A stretch of DNA of 64,000 bases from positions 39,780 through 103,779 of the IMG/VR virus record IMGVR_UViG_3300037424_000906. One strand, 5' to 3'. The DNA comes from a virus. The notes below the pieces were generated by a model. It searched no databases and had not been told where the DNA came from. It saw only the letters and a list, made by a program, of their open reading frames with translations. The position numbers and the translations under genes were made by a program. This document shows positions 23,633-40,708 of the stretch, one piece after another. Every line of letters begins with the position of its first letter. Within the stretch, counting starts at the first letter, position 1.

Positions 23633-24021
23633 CCACGTACACGGTCAACGTCAACGTGTCCGGGCCCATCTTCGACGGCCGCGCCCAGGCCGCCATCGAC
23701 GACACCCTCGCGGAAACGGTGTGGGAGTTGGCGAAGGAAGGCCGGGGCATGCTCGGCGTCCGCTTCGTCCGCGACTTCAAAGAGCCGACCGGCTACTACG
23801 AATCCCGGGTTGAGGCGCAGAAGGTCACCCGCGAGCTGGCCCGCATCCACGACAACGGTGTGGTCTACGGGCCGTGGCTGGAAGGGACCGGATCCCGCAA
23901 CTACCCGGTCACCCGGTTCAAGGGCTACGGGATCTTCCGTGAGGTCACGCAGGAACTGCAGCGCAAAGCGCCCGAGGTGTGCACGCGGATCCTCGCCCGG
24001 CATATCGGGGAGATGGGCTGA
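23629..24021 (+). CDS. HK97 gp10-like neck/tail completion protein
   Basis: PTGYYES, VYGPWLEGT..RN. Confidence 0.75.
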   Translation: MTTYTVNVNVSGPIFDGRAQAAIDDTLAETVWELAKEGRGMLGVRFVRDFKEPTGYYESRVEAQKVTRELARIHDNGVVYGPWLEGTGSRNYPVTRFKGYGIFREVTQELQRKAPEVCTRILARHIGEMG

Positions 24022-24479
24022 TGGCACTCAACACGCAGGCAACCATCGACGCGCTCATGTCGCACGCCCAGGCGTTGGGTCTGTTCGAGCAGTTCGTCGG
24101 CCACGAACCGATCTCCGCCCTCGGCAACGGACTGACTGGTGGGACGTGGGTCAGTGAGATCCAGCCGTACGCCAAGGCGTCCGGTCTGGCAAGAACGGCC
24201 GCGGTCTCGGTCTACGCCGTGCGCCTGTACACACCGGCCGCCCAGCAACCACTGGACGCGATCGACCCGGCCTTGACGAACGCCACGGACCTGCTGATGG
24301 AGGCGTACTCCGGTGACTTCGACCTCGGCGGCAACGTCCGCAACATCGACCTGCTCGGCGAATCGGGTTACCGCCTGCTCGCGAAGGCTGGTTGGCAGAC
24401 GCTCGGCGACATCACCATGCGAATCATGAACATCACTGTCCCAGTGATCATCAACGACGCCTTCACGCAGGCCAGCTAG
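24021..24479 (+). CDS. Putative tail terminator
   Basis: Position; DFDLGGNV motif. Confidence 0.7.
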   Translation: MALNTQATIDALMSHAQALGLFEQFVGHEPISALGNGLTGGTWVSEIQPYAKASGLARTAAVSVYAVRLYTPAAQQPLDAIDPALTNATDLLMEAYSGDFDLGGNVRNIDLLGESGYRLLAKAGWQTLGDITMRIMNITVPVIINDAFTQAS

Positions 24480-24488
24480 GAGGATGAC

Positions 24489-25238
24489 GTGGCAAAACAG
24501 TCGGGACTTGGGGACAACTGCTATGTGGCCGGATACGACCTCAGCGGCGACATCGGTTCCCTGTCGAAGATCGGCGGCGGGCCGAAGCCGCTGGTCGTGA
24601 CAGCGATCGACAAAAGCGCGTTCGAGCGCATCGGTGGTATCCGTGACGGCGGCCTGGAGTACATGGCGTTCTTCAACGACGCCGCGAGCCAGGCCCACCC
24701 ACGACTGTCAACGCTGCCCCGAACCGATCAGATCGTCACGTACTGCCGGGGCACCACATTGGGCAATCCGGCGGCGGCGTGCGTGGCCAAGCAGCTCAAC
24801 TATGACGGCACCCGAGGTGCGGACGGGTCCTTCACCTTCACCGTGCAGGCGCTCGCGAACGCGTACGGGCTGGAATGGGGTCGACAGCTCACCGCAGGCA
24901 AACGCACCGACACGGCGGCAACGAACGGGACTGGCGTCGACTTCACCTCGGCGTCCACGTTCGGCCTTCAGGCGTACCTCCACGTCTTCTCCTTCGTCGG
25001 CACCGACGCCACTATCAAGATCCAAGAGTCGTCGGATAACGGCGCCGACGTCTACGCCGACGTGACCGGCGGCGACTTCACCGCAGTCACGGTAGGCCCG
25101 ACATCTCAACGCATCGCCACATCGGCGACGCTGGCCGTGGAACGGTACCTGCGGGTTGTCACCACCACTTCGGCCGGCTTCACATCACTGGTGTTCTCGG
25201 TGACCGTGATGCGCAACCTGACGGCGACGGCCTTCTGA
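24489..25238 (+). CDS. Tail-tube-like protein with extra C-terminal beta domain
   Basis: AKQSGLG...TAIDKSAFERIGGIRD...FFND, paralogous to 26419-26841. Confidence 0.7.
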   Translation: MAKQSGLGDNCYVAGYDLSGDIGSLSKIGGGPKPLVVTAIDKSAFERIGGIRDGGLEYMAFFNDAASQAHPRLSTLPRTDQIVTYCRGTTLGNPAAACVAKQLNYDGTRGADGSFTFTVQALANAYGLEWGRQLTAGKRTDTAATNGTGVDFTSASTFGLQAYLHVFSFVGTDATIKIQESSDNGADVYADVTGGDFTAVTVGPTSQRIATSATLAVERYLRVVTTTSAGFTSLVFSVTVMRNLTATAF

Positions 25239-25681
25239 TGGGGCGCCCACTCAACCGCATCGTCCCGAACTTGCCGGCTGCGGCGTACAAGACCTATGGC
25301 ATCAGGTCACCCATGGCCACGCACTTCCGGCCTGCGACGTGTGCGGAGGTCGACTGTCAGCCCTACCAGTTCGGTTGGGTTACCACGGTTCCGGCTGGGT
25401 CGCAGGACGAGGCGGTGATTCGCCGTGCCGGCCGACGCTTCTTCGAGGAGCGGGTGGGCGGCGGGTTTATCCAGTTCAAGTTTCCGCCCGGGCAGTCGTG
25501 TTTCAAGGTGTCGACGCATCGGGTGTCGTTGCAGCGTCCGGAGAACTTCGTGGTGCTGGGCGGTGACTGGAGGGGAAACCCGACGGGGTCGCCTGCGGTG
25601 AAGCACACCAAGCCGGAGTTCTGGATCGAAGACTTCGCGGGGCACCAGGACAGGCTGAAAACCGCCCGGGAAAGGGGGTAA
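25238..25681 (+). CDS. Conserved hypothetical tail-region protein
   Basis: ATCAEVDC..Y..GW, F.PGQ.CF...H, GDWRGNP. Confidence 0.7.
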   Translation: MGRPLNRIVPNLPAAAYKTYGIRSPMATHFRPATCAEVDCQPYQFGWVTTVPAGSQDEAVIRRAGRRFFEERVGGGFIQFKFPPGQSCFKVSTHRVSLQRPENFVVLGGDWRGNPTGSPAVKHTKPEFWIEDFAGHQDRLKTARERG

Positions 25682-25722
25682 GCGATGTCGTTAATGGACA
25701 AAGAATCCACTAGAATTGGTCT

Positions 25723-26370
25723 ATGGTCCCCGATTCTAGAGCCTGCACAAAGTGCAGGCTTGACAAGCCCCTGTCCGAGTTCTCTAAGGCACCTCGCGGC
25801 AAGTACGGACGAAAGGCTTCCTGCAAGGCGTGCGACGCGGCGCGCTTCCAGGCCGACTACGTCCCCGCAGTGCCCGACGAGCAGGCCAGGCGCAAGCGAT
25901 ACACCGGCCGTCAGGACGGTCCAAAGACTTGCAACAGATGCCATGTTGCAAGAGATCGAACAGAGTTCCACTCGGGCCATGAAGGCAAGTACGGTCCTGT
26001 CCTCAAGAGCATTTGCAAGCCCTGCCATGCTGCCGCCACCCGTGAGTGGTACAGCCGGAACAGCGATCAGAGCAATACGAACCGCCGCAGGCTTCAACTC
26101 AAGAAGGACTACAACCTCACGCCCGAACAATATGAGGCAATGGTCGTTGCGCAAAACGGCGTCTGCGCCATCTGCAAGAGGCCAGAAAGAACCAAGCGCA
26201 ACGGGAAAGTCATGCGCATGTCCGTCGATCACTGCCGCGAGACGGGGCTTATCAGGGCACTCCTGTGCCATTCATGCAACCGTGCGCTCGGCCTCCTCGG
26301 CGACAGCGTCGAACACATGCGCAAGGCAATCGAGTACCTGCTGCTGCATCGCGCAAAAGCAGTCGAGTAA
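25723..26370 (+). CDS. Endonuclease VII-type HNH homing endonuclease
   Basis: Two CxxC...CKxC repeats; QNGVCAIC...VDHC..TG.IRALLC.SCN.ALG. Confidence 0.9.
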   Translation: MVPDSRACTKCRLDKPLSEFSKAPRGKYGRKASCKACDAARFQADYVPAVPDEQARRKRYTGRQDGPKTCNRCHVARDRTEFHSGHEGKYGPVLKSICKPCHAAATREWYSRNSDQSNTNRRRLQLKKDYNLTPEQYEAMVVAQNGVCAICKRPERTKRNGKVMRMSVDHCRETGLIRALLCHSCNRALGLLGDSVEHMRKAIEYLLLHRAKAVE

Positions 26371-26418
26371 CGGAGGGTGGCCACTACTGCCCTCCACTTA
26401 CCAAGGAGGGCAGTAGCC

Positions 26419-26841
26419 ATCTCGAAGGAATCCGGCCTTTCGTGGACCTCAATGTCCATTGACGACAGTGGTGGCACGCTACGTGATCTCAGGAATGACA
26501 TCACGACGTTCAACTTCAGCACCCCGCGCGCCGTGCAGGACACGACCGGCATCGACAAGTCGGCGATGGAGCGGCTGTTGCTGCTCGCGGACCTGTCCTT
26601 CTCCTGGTCCGGGGTGTTCAACGACGGCACGAACGCGTCCCACGACGTTTTCAAAACCGCGCCCTCCACCAGCGTGGCCAGGGAGATCCTCCTCAACGTG
26701 TCGGGGCAGATCCTCGGCACCACACCTCAGGTGACGGTGCTGCTGACCGACTACGCACTGACGCGTGCGGCGGACGGATCACTCACCTGGCAGGTGCCGG
26801 GGGTCCTTGCCGGCGGCGAAATTCCCACGTGGACCACGTGA
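26419..26841 (+). CDS. Major tail (tube) protein; probable ATC start (alternative GTG at 26377)
   Basis: SKESGL...RAVQDTTGIDKSAMERLLLLAD...GVFND; AAGGAGG upstream of ATC. Confidence 0.75.
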   Translation: MSKESGLSWTSMSIDDSGGTLRDLRNDITTFNFSTPRAVQDTTGIDKSAMERLLLLADLSFSWSGVFNDGTNASHDVFKTAPSTSVAREILLNVSGQILGTTPQVTVLLTDYALTRAADGSLTWQVPGVLAGGEIPTWTT

Positions 26842-26934
26842 TCACGTTGGGTGGCCTCCGCAAATACATGGAGGCCACCCACTGCCGCCAGGCCTGTTCC
26901 AACAAGAAGCGTTCACAGGAAAGTGGGGCCTGAT

Positions 26935-27399
26935 GTGGCCGGTTACGTACGCAAGAACCTGAAGCTGGTCTTCGACGATGAGGAGTTCGAGGGCCTGGTC
27001 GTCTTCGCCCGGCGACTGAACATCGGCCAGCTCCTCGACCTGACCGCGTTGCAGAGCTTGAAGGATCTGGCCGACGACTCGCCGGAGGTTCGCGAAAAGC
27101 TCCAGGAGGTCTTCAACCTCCTGGCGTCGCTGATCAAGTCCTGGAACCTCGAAGAGCTTGAGGACGAGGACGACGACGACGACGACAGCCCACGCAAGCC
27201 CGTACCGGTGACCGGTGAGGCGCTCGCTGCGCAGGACCTCGGGTTTGTCATGGCCATGGTCAACGCGATCCAGGACGCGTCCGCTGGTGTGTCCGCCCCT
27301 TTGGGACGGAGCTCATCCGCTGGGCAGCAGTCCCTGGAGGCGTCGATGCCGATGGAGATCGCGTTGCCGAACCAGGAGAGCTTGCTGACGCCCGCCTGA
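26935..27399 (+). CDS. Tail assembly chaperone (short form)
   Basis: Between tail tube and tape measure; IKSWNL motif. Confidence 0.8.
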   Translation: MAGYVRKNLKLVFDDEEFEGLVVFARRLNIGQLLDLTALQSLKDLADDSPEVREKLQEVFNLLASLIKSWNLEELEDEDDDDDDSPRKPVPVTGEALAAQDLGFVMAMVNAIQDASAGVSAPLGRSSSAGQQSLEASMPMEIALPNQESLLTPA

Positions 27400-27524
27400 T
27401 TTTGGGCCTCTGCGACCGCTTCCACTGCCTTCCGTCACACCTGCTCGCCGAGGACGCGAACCTACTCCGCCTGTTGAAGATCGAACACCTTGGACGCCGA
27501 GAGGAGGGGTCTGCTGATGAGTGA
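27297..27524 (+). other. Programmed -1 frameshift (CCCTTTG) and extended chaperone frame
   Basis: In-frame C-CCT-TTG; -1 frame gives ...LILGLCDRFHCLPSHLLAEDANLLRLL..., stop overlapping the TMP start. Confidence 0.75.
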
Positions 27525-29913
27525 CGGCTACGTTGAGATTCGCATCAAAGGCACGAACGCCTCCAAGCCTGCGTTCAAGGAAGCCGAAGCCGACGCCAAA
27601 GACCACGGGAACAAGGTCACCACGATCCTTGGCCAAGCAGGCGAGCGTGCCGGTGAGGCCCTGGGCGAGGGCATCAAGCGCGGCTCGGACGGCAAGCTTC
27701 GTGATGCCAGAGGCAGGTTCGTCAAGGAAGGCAAAGGCCTCGGCGAGGGTCTAGGCGAGGGCATCAAGGACGGCCTCGGCGACGGCGTCAACGCGGGCAC
27801 CTCGATGTTCGGCCGCTTCCTGGACACCATCGTCGGCATGGCGTCGGTCACGACGGAAGGCGTCGGTAAAACACTGGCGTCGCTTTTTCCTGCGGGCGCG
27901 TCTTTTCTCGGCCTCACTGCGGCAACGGGCGGCGTGAACCTCCTCGTCGGTGCGTTCTTGCTGTTGGTCGCTGCTGCTGCGGCAGCGCTCGCGGGGCTGA
28001 TCGTGCTGGCGCCGACGCTGCTCCTGATCGGCGGTGCGGCCGGATCGGTGACAACCCTGCTGGTAGGGCTCGGCGGTGCGGTCGCGGTGCTGGGTTTGGG
28101 CCTGGGTGGCCTGTCGGATGCGTGGACCGCGTACGGCCTGTCCGCCAGCGGTGGTGGTGTGTCCTCGGCCGCTGCCGCACGGCAGGTGGTGCAGGCGCAG
28201 CGTGAGGTGAAGTCCGCGACCCTCGACCTCGCGGACGCGCAGAATGCTGCCCGGCAGGCGCAGGAGGCGGTGACGCAGGCGCGGCTGGATGAGTCGGAGC
28301 GGCTCAGTGACCTGCAACGGAATCTGGCGTCGGCACAGCGGGATGAGGAAGGCGCGATCCTCGCGGTCACCCGGGCGGAGCAGCGTTTGCGTGAGGTGCG
28401 CCGGCAGCCGGGTCGTACCGCCCTGGACGTGAAGGAAGCCGAGCTTGCTCTGCGTCAGGCTGTGGGCGCGGTCGATGACATGCGGGACCACGTCGATGAC
28501 CTGAGCAAGGAGCAGGCTGCCGGCGCGAAGAAGGGCGTCGAAGGCAGCGACGCGGTGCAGTCCGCTCTGGAGCGTCAGAAGCAGGCGCAGCGCAGCCTGG
28601 AGCAGGCGACGTGGCGGCTCGCCGACGCGCAGAAGGCTGTTGCTGAGGGTGCGGGCGGTGCGGCTGGTGGGGTGGACAAGTTCGCGGAGGCGATGGCGAA
28701 GTTGTCGCCGAACGCGCAGGCTTTGATCAAGACTTTGATCGCGTTGAAGCCGAAGTTCGACGAACTGAAGAAGTCGACGCAGGACCGGCTTCTTGAGGGT
28801 ATCGACACCTCGGTCAAGGATCTGGCTACGAAGTGGCTGCCGACGCTCGGCCCGATGTTGGGTGGGCTTGCTGGCAGCTTCAACAAGGTTGGCAAGTCGC
28901 TGCTTGATTCGCTGGGCAAGAAAGATTTCATCGAGAACATCTCCACCGCCATGGCCGGGTTCGGGCGGTTCGTGGAGCGTGTGGGTGGGGCGATCTCGGG
29001 CCCGCTCGTGGACGCGTTCGGCCGTCTGGCTGCCGCGTCTGCGCCGTTCTTGGAAACCCTGGGCGACAAGATCGCCGGTTTGGTGGAGAACTTCTCTGCG
29101 TGGATCAAGACCGCTGACGAATCCGGCTCCCTGACGTCGTTCATGGAGAGTGCGTCGAGGGCGCTCTCGGATATCTGGTCGATTGGCGGCCTGACGATTG
29201 ACATCCTCGGTGAGATCGTGTCGACCTTGTGGCCGGGTTCAAAGCGGGAGTCGTCGACCTTCCTCGGTGGTGTGATCGTTCGGATGCAGGAGTTTCGGGA
29301 CTGGCTTGCTGATCCGGAGAACAAGCAGAAGATCCAGGACTGGATTGAGCGCATCCAGGATTTGGGCAAGGCCGCTTTTTGGGTGGCTGACAAGGTCGGC
29401 GGTTTGATCGACATGGTTAGTGGTTGGGTCGACAGGGTCAGTGAGTGGGCTACTGCGGTCGGCAAAACCAAAGACAAGATCAAGAAAAATGCTTCCGGTC
29501 TGTTCGACGGGCTGAAGGACGCGTTCAAATCCGCCCTGAACTGGATCATCGACCGGTGGAACGGGCTGCGATTCACACTGCCCAGCGTCAACCTTTTCGG
29601 CAACGAAATCGGTGGCGGCAGCATCGGCACCTCGCACATCAACCGCTTCGCCCAAGGCGGTATCGGCGGCGGCCTGGCCTGGGTCGGCGAACGCGGACGT
29701 GAACTCGTCAACCTGCCGCAAGGGTCGCAGGTCATCCCCCATGGAAGCAGCGAAGCCATGGCTGCGGGCGGCGGGGGTGGGGGTGCCCGTGAGGTGCGTC
29801 TGATCATCGAGCTGCGTAACGCAACAACCGAGGTCGCGAACCTCATTCGGAAGATCGTCAACGTCGAAGGCGGCGGGGACGTCTCCGTCGCGTTCGGGAA
29901 AGCATCGAGGTAA
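27517..29913 (+). CDS. Tape measure protein
   Basis: GGAGG SD; hydrophobic segments, coiled coil, KLSPNAQ, FAQGG...WVGERGRELV. Confidence 0.92.
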   Translation: MSDGYVEIRIKGTNASKPAFKEAEADAKDHGNKVTTILGQAGERAGEALGEGIKRGSDGKLRDARGRFVKEGKGLGEGLGEGIKDGLGDGVNAGTSMFGRFLDTIVGMASVTTEGVGKTLASLFPAGASFLGLTAATGGVNLLVGAFLLLVAAAAAALAGLIVLAPTLLLIGGAAGSVTTLLVGLGGAVAVLGLGLGGLSDAWTAYGLSASGGGVSSAAAARQVVQAQREVKSATLDLADAQNAARQAQEAVTQARLDESERLSDLQRNLASAQRDEEGAILAVTRAEQRLREVRRQPGRTALDVKEAELALRQAVGAVDDMRDHVDDLSKEQAAGAKKGVEGSDAVQSALERQKQAQRSLEQATWRLADAQKAVAEGAGGAAGGVDKFAEAMAKLSPNAQALIKTLIALKPKFDELKKSTQDRLLEGIDTSVKDLATKWLPTLGPMLGGLAGSFNKVGKSLLDSLGKKDFIENISTAMAGFGRFVERVGGAISGPLVDAFGRLAAASAPFLETLGDKIAGLVENFSAWIKTADESGSLTSFMESASRALSDIWSIGGLTIDILGEIVSTLWPGSKRESSTFLGGVIVRMQEFRDWLADPENKQKIQDWIERIQDLGKAAFWVADKVGGLIDMVSGWVDRVSEWATAVGKTKDKIKKNASGLFDGLKDAFKSALNWIIDRWNGLRFTLPSVNLFGNEIGGGSIGTSHINRFAQGGIGGGLAWVGERGRELVNLPQGSQVIPHGSSEAMAAGGGGGGAREVRLIIELRNATTEVANLIRKIVNVEGGGDVSVAFGKASR

Positions 29914-39775: not shown

Positions 39776-40708
39776 ATGAAAAGCGTAGACCCTCCTCCGC
39801 CCCGAACGGATGTTCGGTTGCTGCTGCCAGCTCCGCTTGGCCCGCCCGAGATGAGCACTCCGGTTCTGCCGGCGGATGAGCGCGTGGAGGTCAGCTTCGG
39901 GCCCGATCGTGACCTCAGGCCAGGAGGCCTGTTCCCTGGGACGATCCTCTCGGCAAAGGACGACCGCGGACGCGTCCTCAGCGGCTCAGACCTTCGCGTC
40001 TATCTCGCGTTGCGCACCCTCCACAGCCCTGTTCCCGGTGATGACCCCCGCGTCGCAGAGATCGCCAGCAGGGCCAACGTGTCTCTGTCTGTCACTGGGA
40101 AAAGCATTCTGCGGCTCCGCGAGATGGGGTTACTCAAGAACCCTCGGCACTCCGACACCAAGCCGGAGCCTGTAAACCGCGTGCGCAGGGTGATCAGCAA
40201 CGAAGAAGGCCCGGTACTCACGTCTGGCAGGCCGGTGCCGATCCAAAAATCGACTCGGACGACGGAGGGCTTGTCGCTGGCGCAAGGGCCGGTCCCGGTT
40301 CTTCGCCAAGTCTCTGCTCCCCGACGAGTTCCAATCAATGCGCGGCGAACGTGTGTGTATAGGCACTACGACGCTGATGATGTGCTGCTCTACGTTGGGA
40401 TGACCAGTACGCCGTCAACGCGTGAGACGAGCCACGTAGCGTCTGCCATCTGGCACGGCCTGAGCAAACGGCGAACCGAGACCTGGTACCCGAACCGGCG
40501 CGATGCTGAACAGGCCGAGACTGAAGCGATTAGTCGTGAGTACCCCCTGTTCAACATCGACGGCAACGTGACCGAGGAGTCGCAGCGCCGCGTGTGGATC
40601 TACCTCAATGGCAAGGAACTGCTCGCGCTCTGGGACATTCACCAGCGGCGGATCAAGTTGGGCAGTAAGCCGAAGCGTCGCAGCAAGAAGCCGAACCACG
40701 CGGCCTGA
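39776..40708 (+). CDS. Winged-HTH plus GIY-YIG domain protein
   Basis: LRVYLAL...EIASRANVS...LRLREMGL; VYRHYD....LLYVGMT...R...H...E.EAI..E.PLFN. Confidence 0.8.
   Translation: MKSVDPPPPRTDVRLLLPAPLGPPEMSTPVLPADERVEVSFGPDRDLRPGGLFPGTILSAKDDRGRVLSGSDLRVYLALRTLHSPVPGDDPRVAEIASRANVSLSVTGKSILRLREMGLLKNPRHSDTKPEPVNRVRRVISNEEGPVLTSGRPVPIQKSTRTTEGLSLAQGPVPVLRQVSAPRRVPINARRTCVYRHYDADDVLLYVGMTSTPSTRETSHVASAIWHGLSKRRTETWYPNRRDAEQAETEAISREYPLFNIDGNVTEESQRRVWIYLNGKELLALWDIHQRRIKLGSKPKRRSKKPNHAA

Follow-up and report, generated by a model that had tools for sequence, protein, structure and literature searches.

In the virus record IMGVR_UViG_3300037424_000906, a tail-tube gene lies directly behind a mobile endonuclease gene and appears to begin with ATC. 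We consider it fairly probable that a homing-endonuclease cassette has entered the first codons of this gene and that the gene is now translated by termination-coupled reinitiation at AUC, behind a leader RNA with two alternative states. The record is a metagenome-derived contig of 103.8 kb from IMG/VR, of which we analyzed positions 39,780 to 103,779, a stretch of 64,000 nucleotides (nt) that is called the window below (WIN where it is compared with other loci, which carry L-numbers as labels). A first, sequence-only reading of the window had already pointed to an ATC restart behind the endonuclease gene. The coordinates of all features are given in Table 1.

ATC stands at the homologous start position of the tail-tube gene

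The open reading frame (ORF) that begins with ATC TCG AAG GAA at 26419 is intact, and its product is 76–80% identical to the nearest aligned relatives (alignment A2). The AlphaFold2 model of this product (predicted local distance difference test, pLDDT, of 75) gave monocin MttP, the 80alpha tube and lambda gpV as top Foldseek matches (probability 1.0, template modelling score 0.55–0.60), and the 140-amino acid (aa) protein is thus predicted to have a tail-tube fold. ATC 26419 is located at the position homologous to the start codons of the orthologs, with the Shine-Dalgarno (SD) sequence AAGGAGG 9 nt upstream. A comparison with homologs free of the HNH gene had been named in advance as a check on this start, and the starts of the homologs do coincide with ATC 26419. 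In the HNH-free Streptomyces phage Dagobah, ATG GCC AAG GAG follows one base after the upstream stop (product MAKETGLGW), and in most of approximately 130 IMG/VR relatives the tube start, mostly a canonical one, is found at the position matching ATC 26419. The codon at this place in an unbiased set of 80 loci was ATG (50), GTG (13), TTG (7), ATC (4), ATT (4), ACG (1), or CTG (1), and in the CTG case the next codon is an ATG start. The gap between the upstream stop and the tube gene was shorter than 14 nt in none of 26 loci with ATH (H being A, C or T) or ACG, and was 22 nt or less in 58 of 87 canonical loci. The predicted non-canonical tube starts are confined to loci in which inserted DNA separates the tube gene from the gene before it.

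ACG, ATC or ATT was also found at the tube start in L009–L011, L128/L138, L134, L183, L013 and L033, each time behind an insertion and without the 16-nt motif described below, so that weak starts at the tube junction extend beyond the motif-bearing loci. In L128/L138, an in-frame TGA is located three codons upstream of the weak tube start. RTG (R being A or G) triplets 9 nt upstream in L009, L013 and L033 were considered as designed starts and rejected, because they consist of the extended SD and the upstream stop and are present before canonical starts too.

A conserved stop-restart motif precedes ATH codons in many actinophage genes

The SD, TAG and spacer in front of ATC 26419 form a 16-nt motif that is not private to the window. 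Its core leader, GGAGGGCAGTAGCC, mostly with AA or RA before it, was found in approximately 40 distinct actinophage and prophage contexts. As an 18-mer (AAGGAGGGCAGTAGCCAT) it is present in 29 IMG/VR contigs, and a relaxed pattern matched 51; relaxing the first base of the 18-mer gave further contexts. The 18-mer is followed by ATA, ATC or ATT in 27 of the 29 contigs and by ATG in the other 2, which do not seem related to the actinophage set; by eye, the leader and opening codons of both resemble lower-GC DNA of proteobacterial type. The start after the motif in the 40 distinct contexts is ATC in 23, ATT in 14, and ATA in 3; TTG was found in three. A search for NTG after the motif in actinophage DNA gave neither ATG nor GTG, only TTG, in tube loci, and searches with TAA, TGA or TGG in place of the motif TAG gave chance-level matches only, 4 of 5 with ATG. 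In GTDB genomes, the motif was found before tube genes in prophages of Micromonosporaceae, Nonomuraea, Streptosporangiaceae and Actinomadura, and the number of non-actinobacterial matches was about that expected by chance.

The ATC start put forward in the sequence-only reading gains from this distribution, since the motif followed by ATH recurs in the approximately 40 contexts, and in 37 of 40 no in-frame ATG, GTG or TTG is present between the nearest in-frame stop and the ATH. Canonical starts upstream of the ATH numbered 0 in 710 codons in frame, versus 21 and 10 in the other two frames, and this depletion points to purifying selection. The genes behind the motif encode tube proteins, major capsid proteins, minor tail proteins and a head protein (these last two from PHROG matches), a baseplate protein and a small CxC protein; lysin-like, tape-measure-sized and acidic scaffold-like ORFs, which were named by N-terminal sequence and size and have no family match, were also found there. 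The ATC of the L077 major capsid gene falls, in an alignment, on the ATG annotated as the start of the capsid gene in KimJongPhill and in Zuko.

In at least 14 of the 40 contexts, and before at least 4 gene families, the motif directly follows a homolog of one of three HNH families: an Endonuclease VII type on the plus strand, a NUMOD-like HNH on either strand, and the HNH_3 type of Compostia, also on either strand. Across these loci only a 14–16-mer is common, and the DNA between endonuclease gene and motif is unrelated. The remaining motif loci have small ORFs in the HNH slot, or just 20–34 nt. A protein family of approximately 70 aa (motif VVIDIKAGEPVKVY, no Pfam match) occupies this junction in L066 (3693–3914), L072 (5682–5906), L088 (3136–3345) and L074; each member ends in GGQ-TAG within the motif, and unrelated small ORFs fill the same slot in L067 and L086. 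The SD/ATC module is no novelty of this insertion but a conserved unit that stands before many genes.

The 64-kb window contains a single copy of the motif, even when 3 mismatches are allowed, and we therefore rejected the idea of a multi-copy regulatory site. A derivation from the leader of infC was likewise rejected, because host infC genes have AGGAGG-N4-ATC, with a different spacer. A literature search for the 16-mer gave no description of it. On a Micromonospora sp. chromosome (L091, 5059), next to an ORF that resembles non-ribosomal peptide synthetases (named by length and sequence), a gene resembling branched-chain aminotransferases has the exact motif with ATA 12 codons ahead of its canonical ATG; this copy may be a chance match, because 15 matches in 596 Gb is close to random expectation.

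Recurrence of the motif also bears on two other explanations of the ATC. A sequencing error at 26421 is unlikely, as the arrangement is found in approximately 40 independent assemblies, the only full DNA match in public sequencing runs, an identical one from a sediment metagenome, being probably the source itself (no RNA run was listed; a soil run contained a 254-nt HNH fragment with 2 differences). It is very improbable, too, that the tube gene is dead, its start codon lost in a decaying element: a non-canonical start in a metagenome-derived virus contig would fit this, but the ORF is intact and its protein conserved, upstream in-frame canonical starts are depleted, and the approximately 40 contexts with the same arrangement include plaque-forming mycobacteriophages.

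Cultured mycobacteriophages carry the same arrangement

In Chandler-type phages (Pipefishvirus, which we take to be Cluster B3), gene 12 ends with CAG GGA GGG CAG TAG CC, followed by ATC GGA TGT AAC TGC. The annotated gp13 of Chandler (L187, KP027207, 701–924) has 43 aa and a GTG start 24 codons past this ATC. The N-terminus of the ORF read from the ATC (IGCNC...) is common to metagenomic homologs behind the exact motif, and gp13 is probably a protein of 67 aa that starts at the ATC, two bases after the TAG of gene 12. In Compostia (L188), an HNH gene is inserted 38 nt upstream of the gp13 ATC and the motif is retained.

The second case is ScoobyDoobyDoo (L189, MZ820085), a myovirus (Myrnavirus, presumably Cluster C) with a 220-nt unannotated gap at 813–1031, before the baseplate J gene 132. 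This gap contains a NUMOD-like ORF of 30 codons that ends in GGQ-TAG, followed by CC ATC GCA AAG ACA, which continues in frame into gp132. In the alignment, this ATC occupies the GVG start position of relatives: it coincides with the GTG start of gp129 of Gordonia phage CherryTomatoes and precedes the TTG start of Rahel gp139 by one codon; the junctions at this gene in CherryTomatoes and Rahel are 10–12 nt long. The gp132 protein is probably 37 residues longer than annotated. The motif with ATC in Chandler-type phages and in ScoobyDoobyDoo shows that viable phages carry the arrangement, in ScoobyDoobyDoo in a structural gene (baseplate J).

The endonuclease cassette lies within the first codons of the tube gene

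The 215-aa ORF between the upstream gene and the tube gene matched Pfam PF02945 with E=3e-22 over profile positions 3–80 of 82, and phrog_2633 with E=1e-40. The GC content of the cassette is 56–61%, versus 64–67% in the flanks. Homologous endonucleases (43–55% identity) are located at the tube junction of WIN, L217, L218, L220, L209 and L065, and five of these six share one cassette plan: a 5' copy of the tube start with its ATG, the hexamer TANNNT, the HNH gene, a leader with two hairpins, TAG, 2 bases, and a weak start. L065 departs from it in part, its endonuclease ORF itself terminating at the motif TAG, and in L209 the leader is 8 nt shorter and the arrangement is broken. The HNH stop lies 37 nt before the GGAGGG of the motif in four cassettes. 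The 5' copy in the window is preceded in frame by the resident ATG TCG TTA (ATG 25685); its counterparts, ATG GCT AAG GAA (tube codons 1–4) in L217, L218 and L220 and ATG GCC in L209, are found with an SD at the same 29-nt distance. The sequence-only reading had placed the insertion after codon 2 of the tube gene. The cassette does lie within the first codons, but the break falls after about codon 4–5 of the cassette-borne copy (ATG 25694).

A TANNNT hexamer 6 nt before a start codon is the geometry of actinobacterial leaderless promoters. The spacing is identical in 6 of 6 cassettes (TAGAAT in four, TATGGT and TAAACT in one each), and since the HNH gene lacks an SD and its ATG follows TANNNT at this distance, a separate leaderless transcript for the gene is probable, with TANNNT as a putative promoter element. 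A scan of 25500–27000 for E. coli-type consensus promoters and terminators gave no match, which leaves the conserved spacing as the argument for this proposal.

The HNH gene is absent from Dagobah, from L033 (93% tube identity) and from most of approximately 110 tube loci. The window leader resembles those of L082 and L209, and L082 and L127 have the same leader type without an endonuclease. Because the leader of L033, the closest tube relative, differs, while L082 and L127 carry this leader without the endonuclease gene, endonuclease and leader probably entered the window lineage jointly, by recombination. The existence of HNH-free alleles and the failure to find an intron family agree with the earlier proposal of an intron-less insertion of a putative homing endonuclease. 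That a self-splicing intron, or ribosomal bypassing, restores ATG-TCG-AAG is highly doubtful. The insert is indeed flanked by ATG TCG and ATC TCG, and T4 gene 60 is a case of an endonuclease cassette with a bypass element (10.1101/2022.08.31.505936), but a scan of 24000–28000 for Rfam intron families at E up to 10 gave chance matches only, the non-coding flanks of the ORF amount to only about 40 nt on the 5' and 50 nt on the 3' side, and the motif with ATH also occurs with spacers of 20–34 nt and no insert (L083, L070). Against bypassing in particular, take-off and landing codons are matched in the window (TCG/TCG) but are CCG/GCG in L005, with no match at the CAG-TAG site, and the gap is 731 nt here versus 50 nt in T4.

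An overlapping frame runs across the cassette into the motif

The frame that starts at the resident ATG 25685 is open for 243 codons, over the whole HNH gene, and ends at TAG 26414–26416, 2 bases (CC) before the ATC, just as the sequence-only reading had described. When the HNH gene was shuffled synonymously, this frame was open in 67–80 of 3000 shuffles. The same frame is open in L217, L218 and L220, where 96, 185 and 1 of 3000 shuffles kept it open, so that shuffle openness across the four cassettes spans 0.03–6%. More generally, a startable ORF ends at the motif TAG in 30 of the 40 contexts. That the frame is kept open in four diverged cassettes is consistent with the predicted coupling of the tube gene to upstream translation. 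Open antisense frames over the minus-strand HNH genes of L061 and L071 were rejected as evidence, because they are an artefact of codon usage (3000 of 3000 shuffles open). We also considered whether the spacer pairs with the 3' region of 16S rRNA or with initiator tRNA; a comparison by eye with a 16S 3'-end sequence gave nothing convincing, and the idea was not retained.

The leader RNA can form two alternative hairpins

The leader between the HNH stop and the ATC is 48 nt long and consists of element 1 (with GGAGGG), element 2, a 9-nt loop and the motif, followed by ATH or TTG. Two pairings had been predicted for it, and both are possible. The 12-bp stem between 26384–26395 and 26405–26416 is perfect, and RNAfold extends it by GGGUGGC/GCCAUCU, so that the AUC is buried too (-30.9 kcal/mol, z = -3.8, with 0 of 200 shuffles as stable). 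In the alternative pairing, GGAGGGUGG (26372–26380) forms a 9-bp helix with CUGCCCUCC (-15.9 kcal/mol), which leaves the sequence from the SD through the AUC single-stranded; the closed state is 15 kcal/mol more stable than this open state. Both helices can be formed in 7 of 7 homologous leaders, which argues for a putative RNA switch. In L127, helix 2:3 (element 2 with the motif) is compensated (UAG/CUA to UGG/CCA) in a leader that also has a GTG start and lacks the TAG and CC of the motif, and in L217 elements 1 and 2 have changed together.

A model for translation of the tube gene and its rivals

In the reading that we favor, a free-standing Endonuclease VII-type cassette would have entered the first codons of the tail-tube gene. 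On the late-operon mRNA, ribosomes would begin at the old tube start (SD and ATG 25685/25694), translate the 243-codon ORF across the cassette, an ORF that would have no protein role of its own and serve as a conveyor, melt the hairpin and terminate at UAG 26414–26416. This UAG is part of a conserved module, GGAGGGCAGUAG-CC-AUC, in which the SD, 5–11 nt upstream, would hold the terminating ribosome for a restart at the AUC, two bases past the stop and nine past the SD. The leader would act as a gate: helix 2:3 buries SD and AUC, and helix 1:2 or a passing ribosome would free both. The weak codon may tie the tube gene to upstream ribosome traffic or to a low-IF3 state; alternatively, it may keep the 3' copy from recreating the endonuclease target.

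Initiation could instead take place de novo at the same ATC behind the same cassette, the 30S subunit binding the SD in the open 1:2 state and the long ORF being incidental or helpful; the weak codon would then make the yield sensitive to IF3, as in infC. We regard this as rather unlikely, though it has evidence of its own. The motif with ATH occurs without a feeding ORF in L077, L073, L075, L082, L199, L209, L214 and L103, the open-state helix is conserved, and host infC genes of Nonomuraea, Actinomadura and Micromonospora start with AGGAGG-N4-ATC. The Streptomyces infC start is ATC as well, and IF3 represses non-canonical starts (PMC5472188). De novo initiation fits poorly with a conveyor frame that is open in four diverged cassettes, with a closed state that is the more stable by 15 kcal/mol and buries the AUC too, or with an invariant TAG two bases before the start.

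Were the tube protein to start at GTG 26377, possibly through reinitiation past the HNH stop, it would have 154 aa, 14 of them extra residues. This GTG is in frame, 7 nt after TAA 26368–26370, and gene callers would choose it, but GGAGG abuts it without a spacer and it is located in the outer stem, the homologous leaders, those of L082 and L209, offer no in-frame canonical start (in L082, a stop closes the frame 18 codons upstream), no such start is present in 37 of 40 motif contexts, and the 14 codons correspond to leader RNA elements and not to conserved protein. We consider this start improbable.

Several observations weigh against reinitiation at the AUC with a switching leader. The in-frame GTG 26377 is present in the window. 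The four cassettes are related by descent, and their shuffle tests are not fully independent; in L209, anatomically the nearest relative, the conveyor frame is no longer open. In 8–10 motif contexts (for example, the capsid locus L077, L082 and L209), no ORF with a usable start codon runs up to the TAG, so that de novo initiation at AUH behind this SD has to be possible as well. The closing stem shows weak covariation, with one compensatory pair and 140 of 500 shuffles scoring as high, a low formal count due to a right arm that hardly varies. Finally, neither the conservation of the 14-mer nor the fact that TAG is never TAA or TGA is accounted for by the model.

A more tentative proposal, possible but somewhat doubtful in our view, is that GGAGGGCAGUAG-CC-(AUH/UUG) is a dedicated, portable stop-restart signal of actinobacteriophages and that the conveyor ORF is selected as a ribosome carrier only. 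If so, homing endonucleases of at least three HNH families would carry the signal along or be drawn to it, and any DNA could be inserted before an essential virion gene, whose translation would come to depend on upstream ribosomes or on a state of low IF3; ATG and GTG would not be tolerated, because a strong start would uncouple the gene or recreate the endonuclease target.

Neighboring features of the window

An 807-aa tape-measure-like ORF lies downstream of the tube gene, at 27490. Two genes upstream of the tube gene, a 249-aa ORF (24489–25238, MAKQSGLGD...) shares its N-terminus with the tube protein and is approximately 35% identical to it over some 85 residues; the pair is kept in relatives, and the ORF is a predicted tube-like paralog. 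Directly after the tube stop, at 26849–26880, a perfect 11-bp hairpin (GGGTGGCCTCC / GGAGGCCACCC) with a 10-nt loop and no T-run may act on RNA stability, or as an attenuator, in the space between the tube and chaperone genes. At 2398–2469, ARAGORN called a tRNA-like sequence with a two-base anticodon (cc), adjoining a tRNA-Ala.

Table 1. Features at the tail-tube junction of the window (positions are those of the window).
Feature	Position	Strand	Basis or remark
Conserved 147-aa virion-module gene	25238..25681	+	ORF, stop TAA 25679-25681; homologs directly before the tube gene in ~110 loci
Resident tube start of ancestral type: SD AAAGGGGG, 6 nt, ATG TCG (ATG 25685)	25671..25690	+	Same place as ATG/GTG/TTG of HNH-free relatives
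243-codon conveyor ORF over the whole HNH gene, in another frame, ending at the motif TAG	25685..26416	+	Open reading frame
Cassette-borne 5' copy of tube codons 1-5, ATG GAC AAA GAA TCC (ATG 25694)	25694..25708	+	29 nt before the HNH ATG
TAGAAT (TANNNT hexamer), exactly 6 nt upstream of the ATG of the HNH gene	25711..25716	+	Candidate -10 box of a leaderless HNH transcript
Predicted homing endonuclease gene, Endonuclease VII family (His-Me/HNH), 215 aa, no SD	25723..26370	+	PF02945, phrog_2633
Leader element 1, GGAGGGTGG	26372..26380	+	Begins 1 nt past the HNH stop; open-state partner of element 2
In-frame GTG, rival start with a 14-codon extension	26377..26379	+	No spacer after GGAGG; in the outer stem
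Leader element 2, CTACTGCCCTCC, anti-SD arm	26384..26395	+	Pairs with element 1 or with the motif
Stop-restart motif AAGGAGGGCAGTAGCC: SD, TAG 26414-26416, CC spacer; right arm of the closing hairpin	26403..26418	+	Exact copies elsewhere
Tail-tube gene, 140 aa, predicted first codon ATC	26419..26841	+	Fold and N-terminal alignment with M/V/L-starting homologs

Discussion

Free-standing endonucleases, near-cognate starts, translational coupling and the T4 mobA/gene 60 cassette are already known. We found no description in the literature of a fixed 14–16-nt stop-restart module that is tied to weak starts and recurs before many actinophage virion genes, of its association with three HNH families, or of an ORF kept open solely to cross a cassette. 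The arrangement suggests a concrete and widespread route by which selfish endonuclease genes could enter the start of essential phage genes without lethality. It would also mean that ATA, ATC and ATT starts are used systematically in actinophage virion genes, in this family in approximately 10% of the tube genes, and it predicts that the annotated starts of gp13 in Chandler-type phages and of gp132 in ScoobyDoobyDoo are wrong. The 16-nt element is compact and has testable rules (weak start only, TAG only, fixed spacer), and an ORF conserved solely to carry ribosomes over a mobile element, if this is what it is, would be an unusual kind of selected frame.

Each part of the system can be compared with a known one. 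The AUU/AUC start of infC is also a near-cognate AUH codon behind a strong SD, and the hosts use AGGAGG-N4-ATC for it (PMC5472188); in the window, by contrast, the spacer is 9 nt and not 4, the fixed GCAGTAGCC spacer holds a stop codon, and the module is tied to insertions and endonucleases. Termination-reinitiation, and hairpins over ribosome-binding sites that ribosomes coming from upstream open, as at the MS2 coat-replicase/lysis junction, share with the window an upstream ORF that ends near the restart, an SD inside it and a hairpin that hides SD and start. Unlike in MS2, the upstream ORF here seems to have no protein role (four cassettes) and runs over an endonuclease gene, the restart is bound to a weak codon, and the 14-mer is conserved across unrelated genes.

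The free-standing Seg and Mob endonucleases of T-even phages resemble the cassette in that HNH genes lie between or inside conserved genes, are sporadic among relatives and have co-converted flanks, a likeness seen here in a leader that is similar to those of L082 and L209 and not to that of the closest tube relative, L033. The window differs from them in that the insertion lies in the first codons, the gene start is duplicated, and three HNH families in both orientations share one downstream module. The start-associated sequences (SAS) of Cluster K mycobacteriophages are reportedly short, conserved, SD-containing sequences that occur many times per genome before canonical starts. The motif, like SAS, is a short conserved SD-containing sequence just upstream of starts in actinophages, but it is single in 64 kb and found with ATH or TTG only. 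The T4 mobA/gene 60 cassette combines an HNH homing endonuclease with a 50-nt translational bypass, and its device includes a stop codon and an SD-like element. The window shares with it a free-standing endonuclease gene in an essential gene and a putative cis-acting translational device, likewise including a stop codon and an SD-like element, that would keep the host gene productive (for T4, 10.1101/2022.08.31.505936). Unlike T4, the window has no system of matched codons for take-off and landing, the peptide chain would not be continuous but begin anew at AUH or UUG two bases past the UAG, the gap to be crossed is the whole cassette, and the module precedes many different genes.

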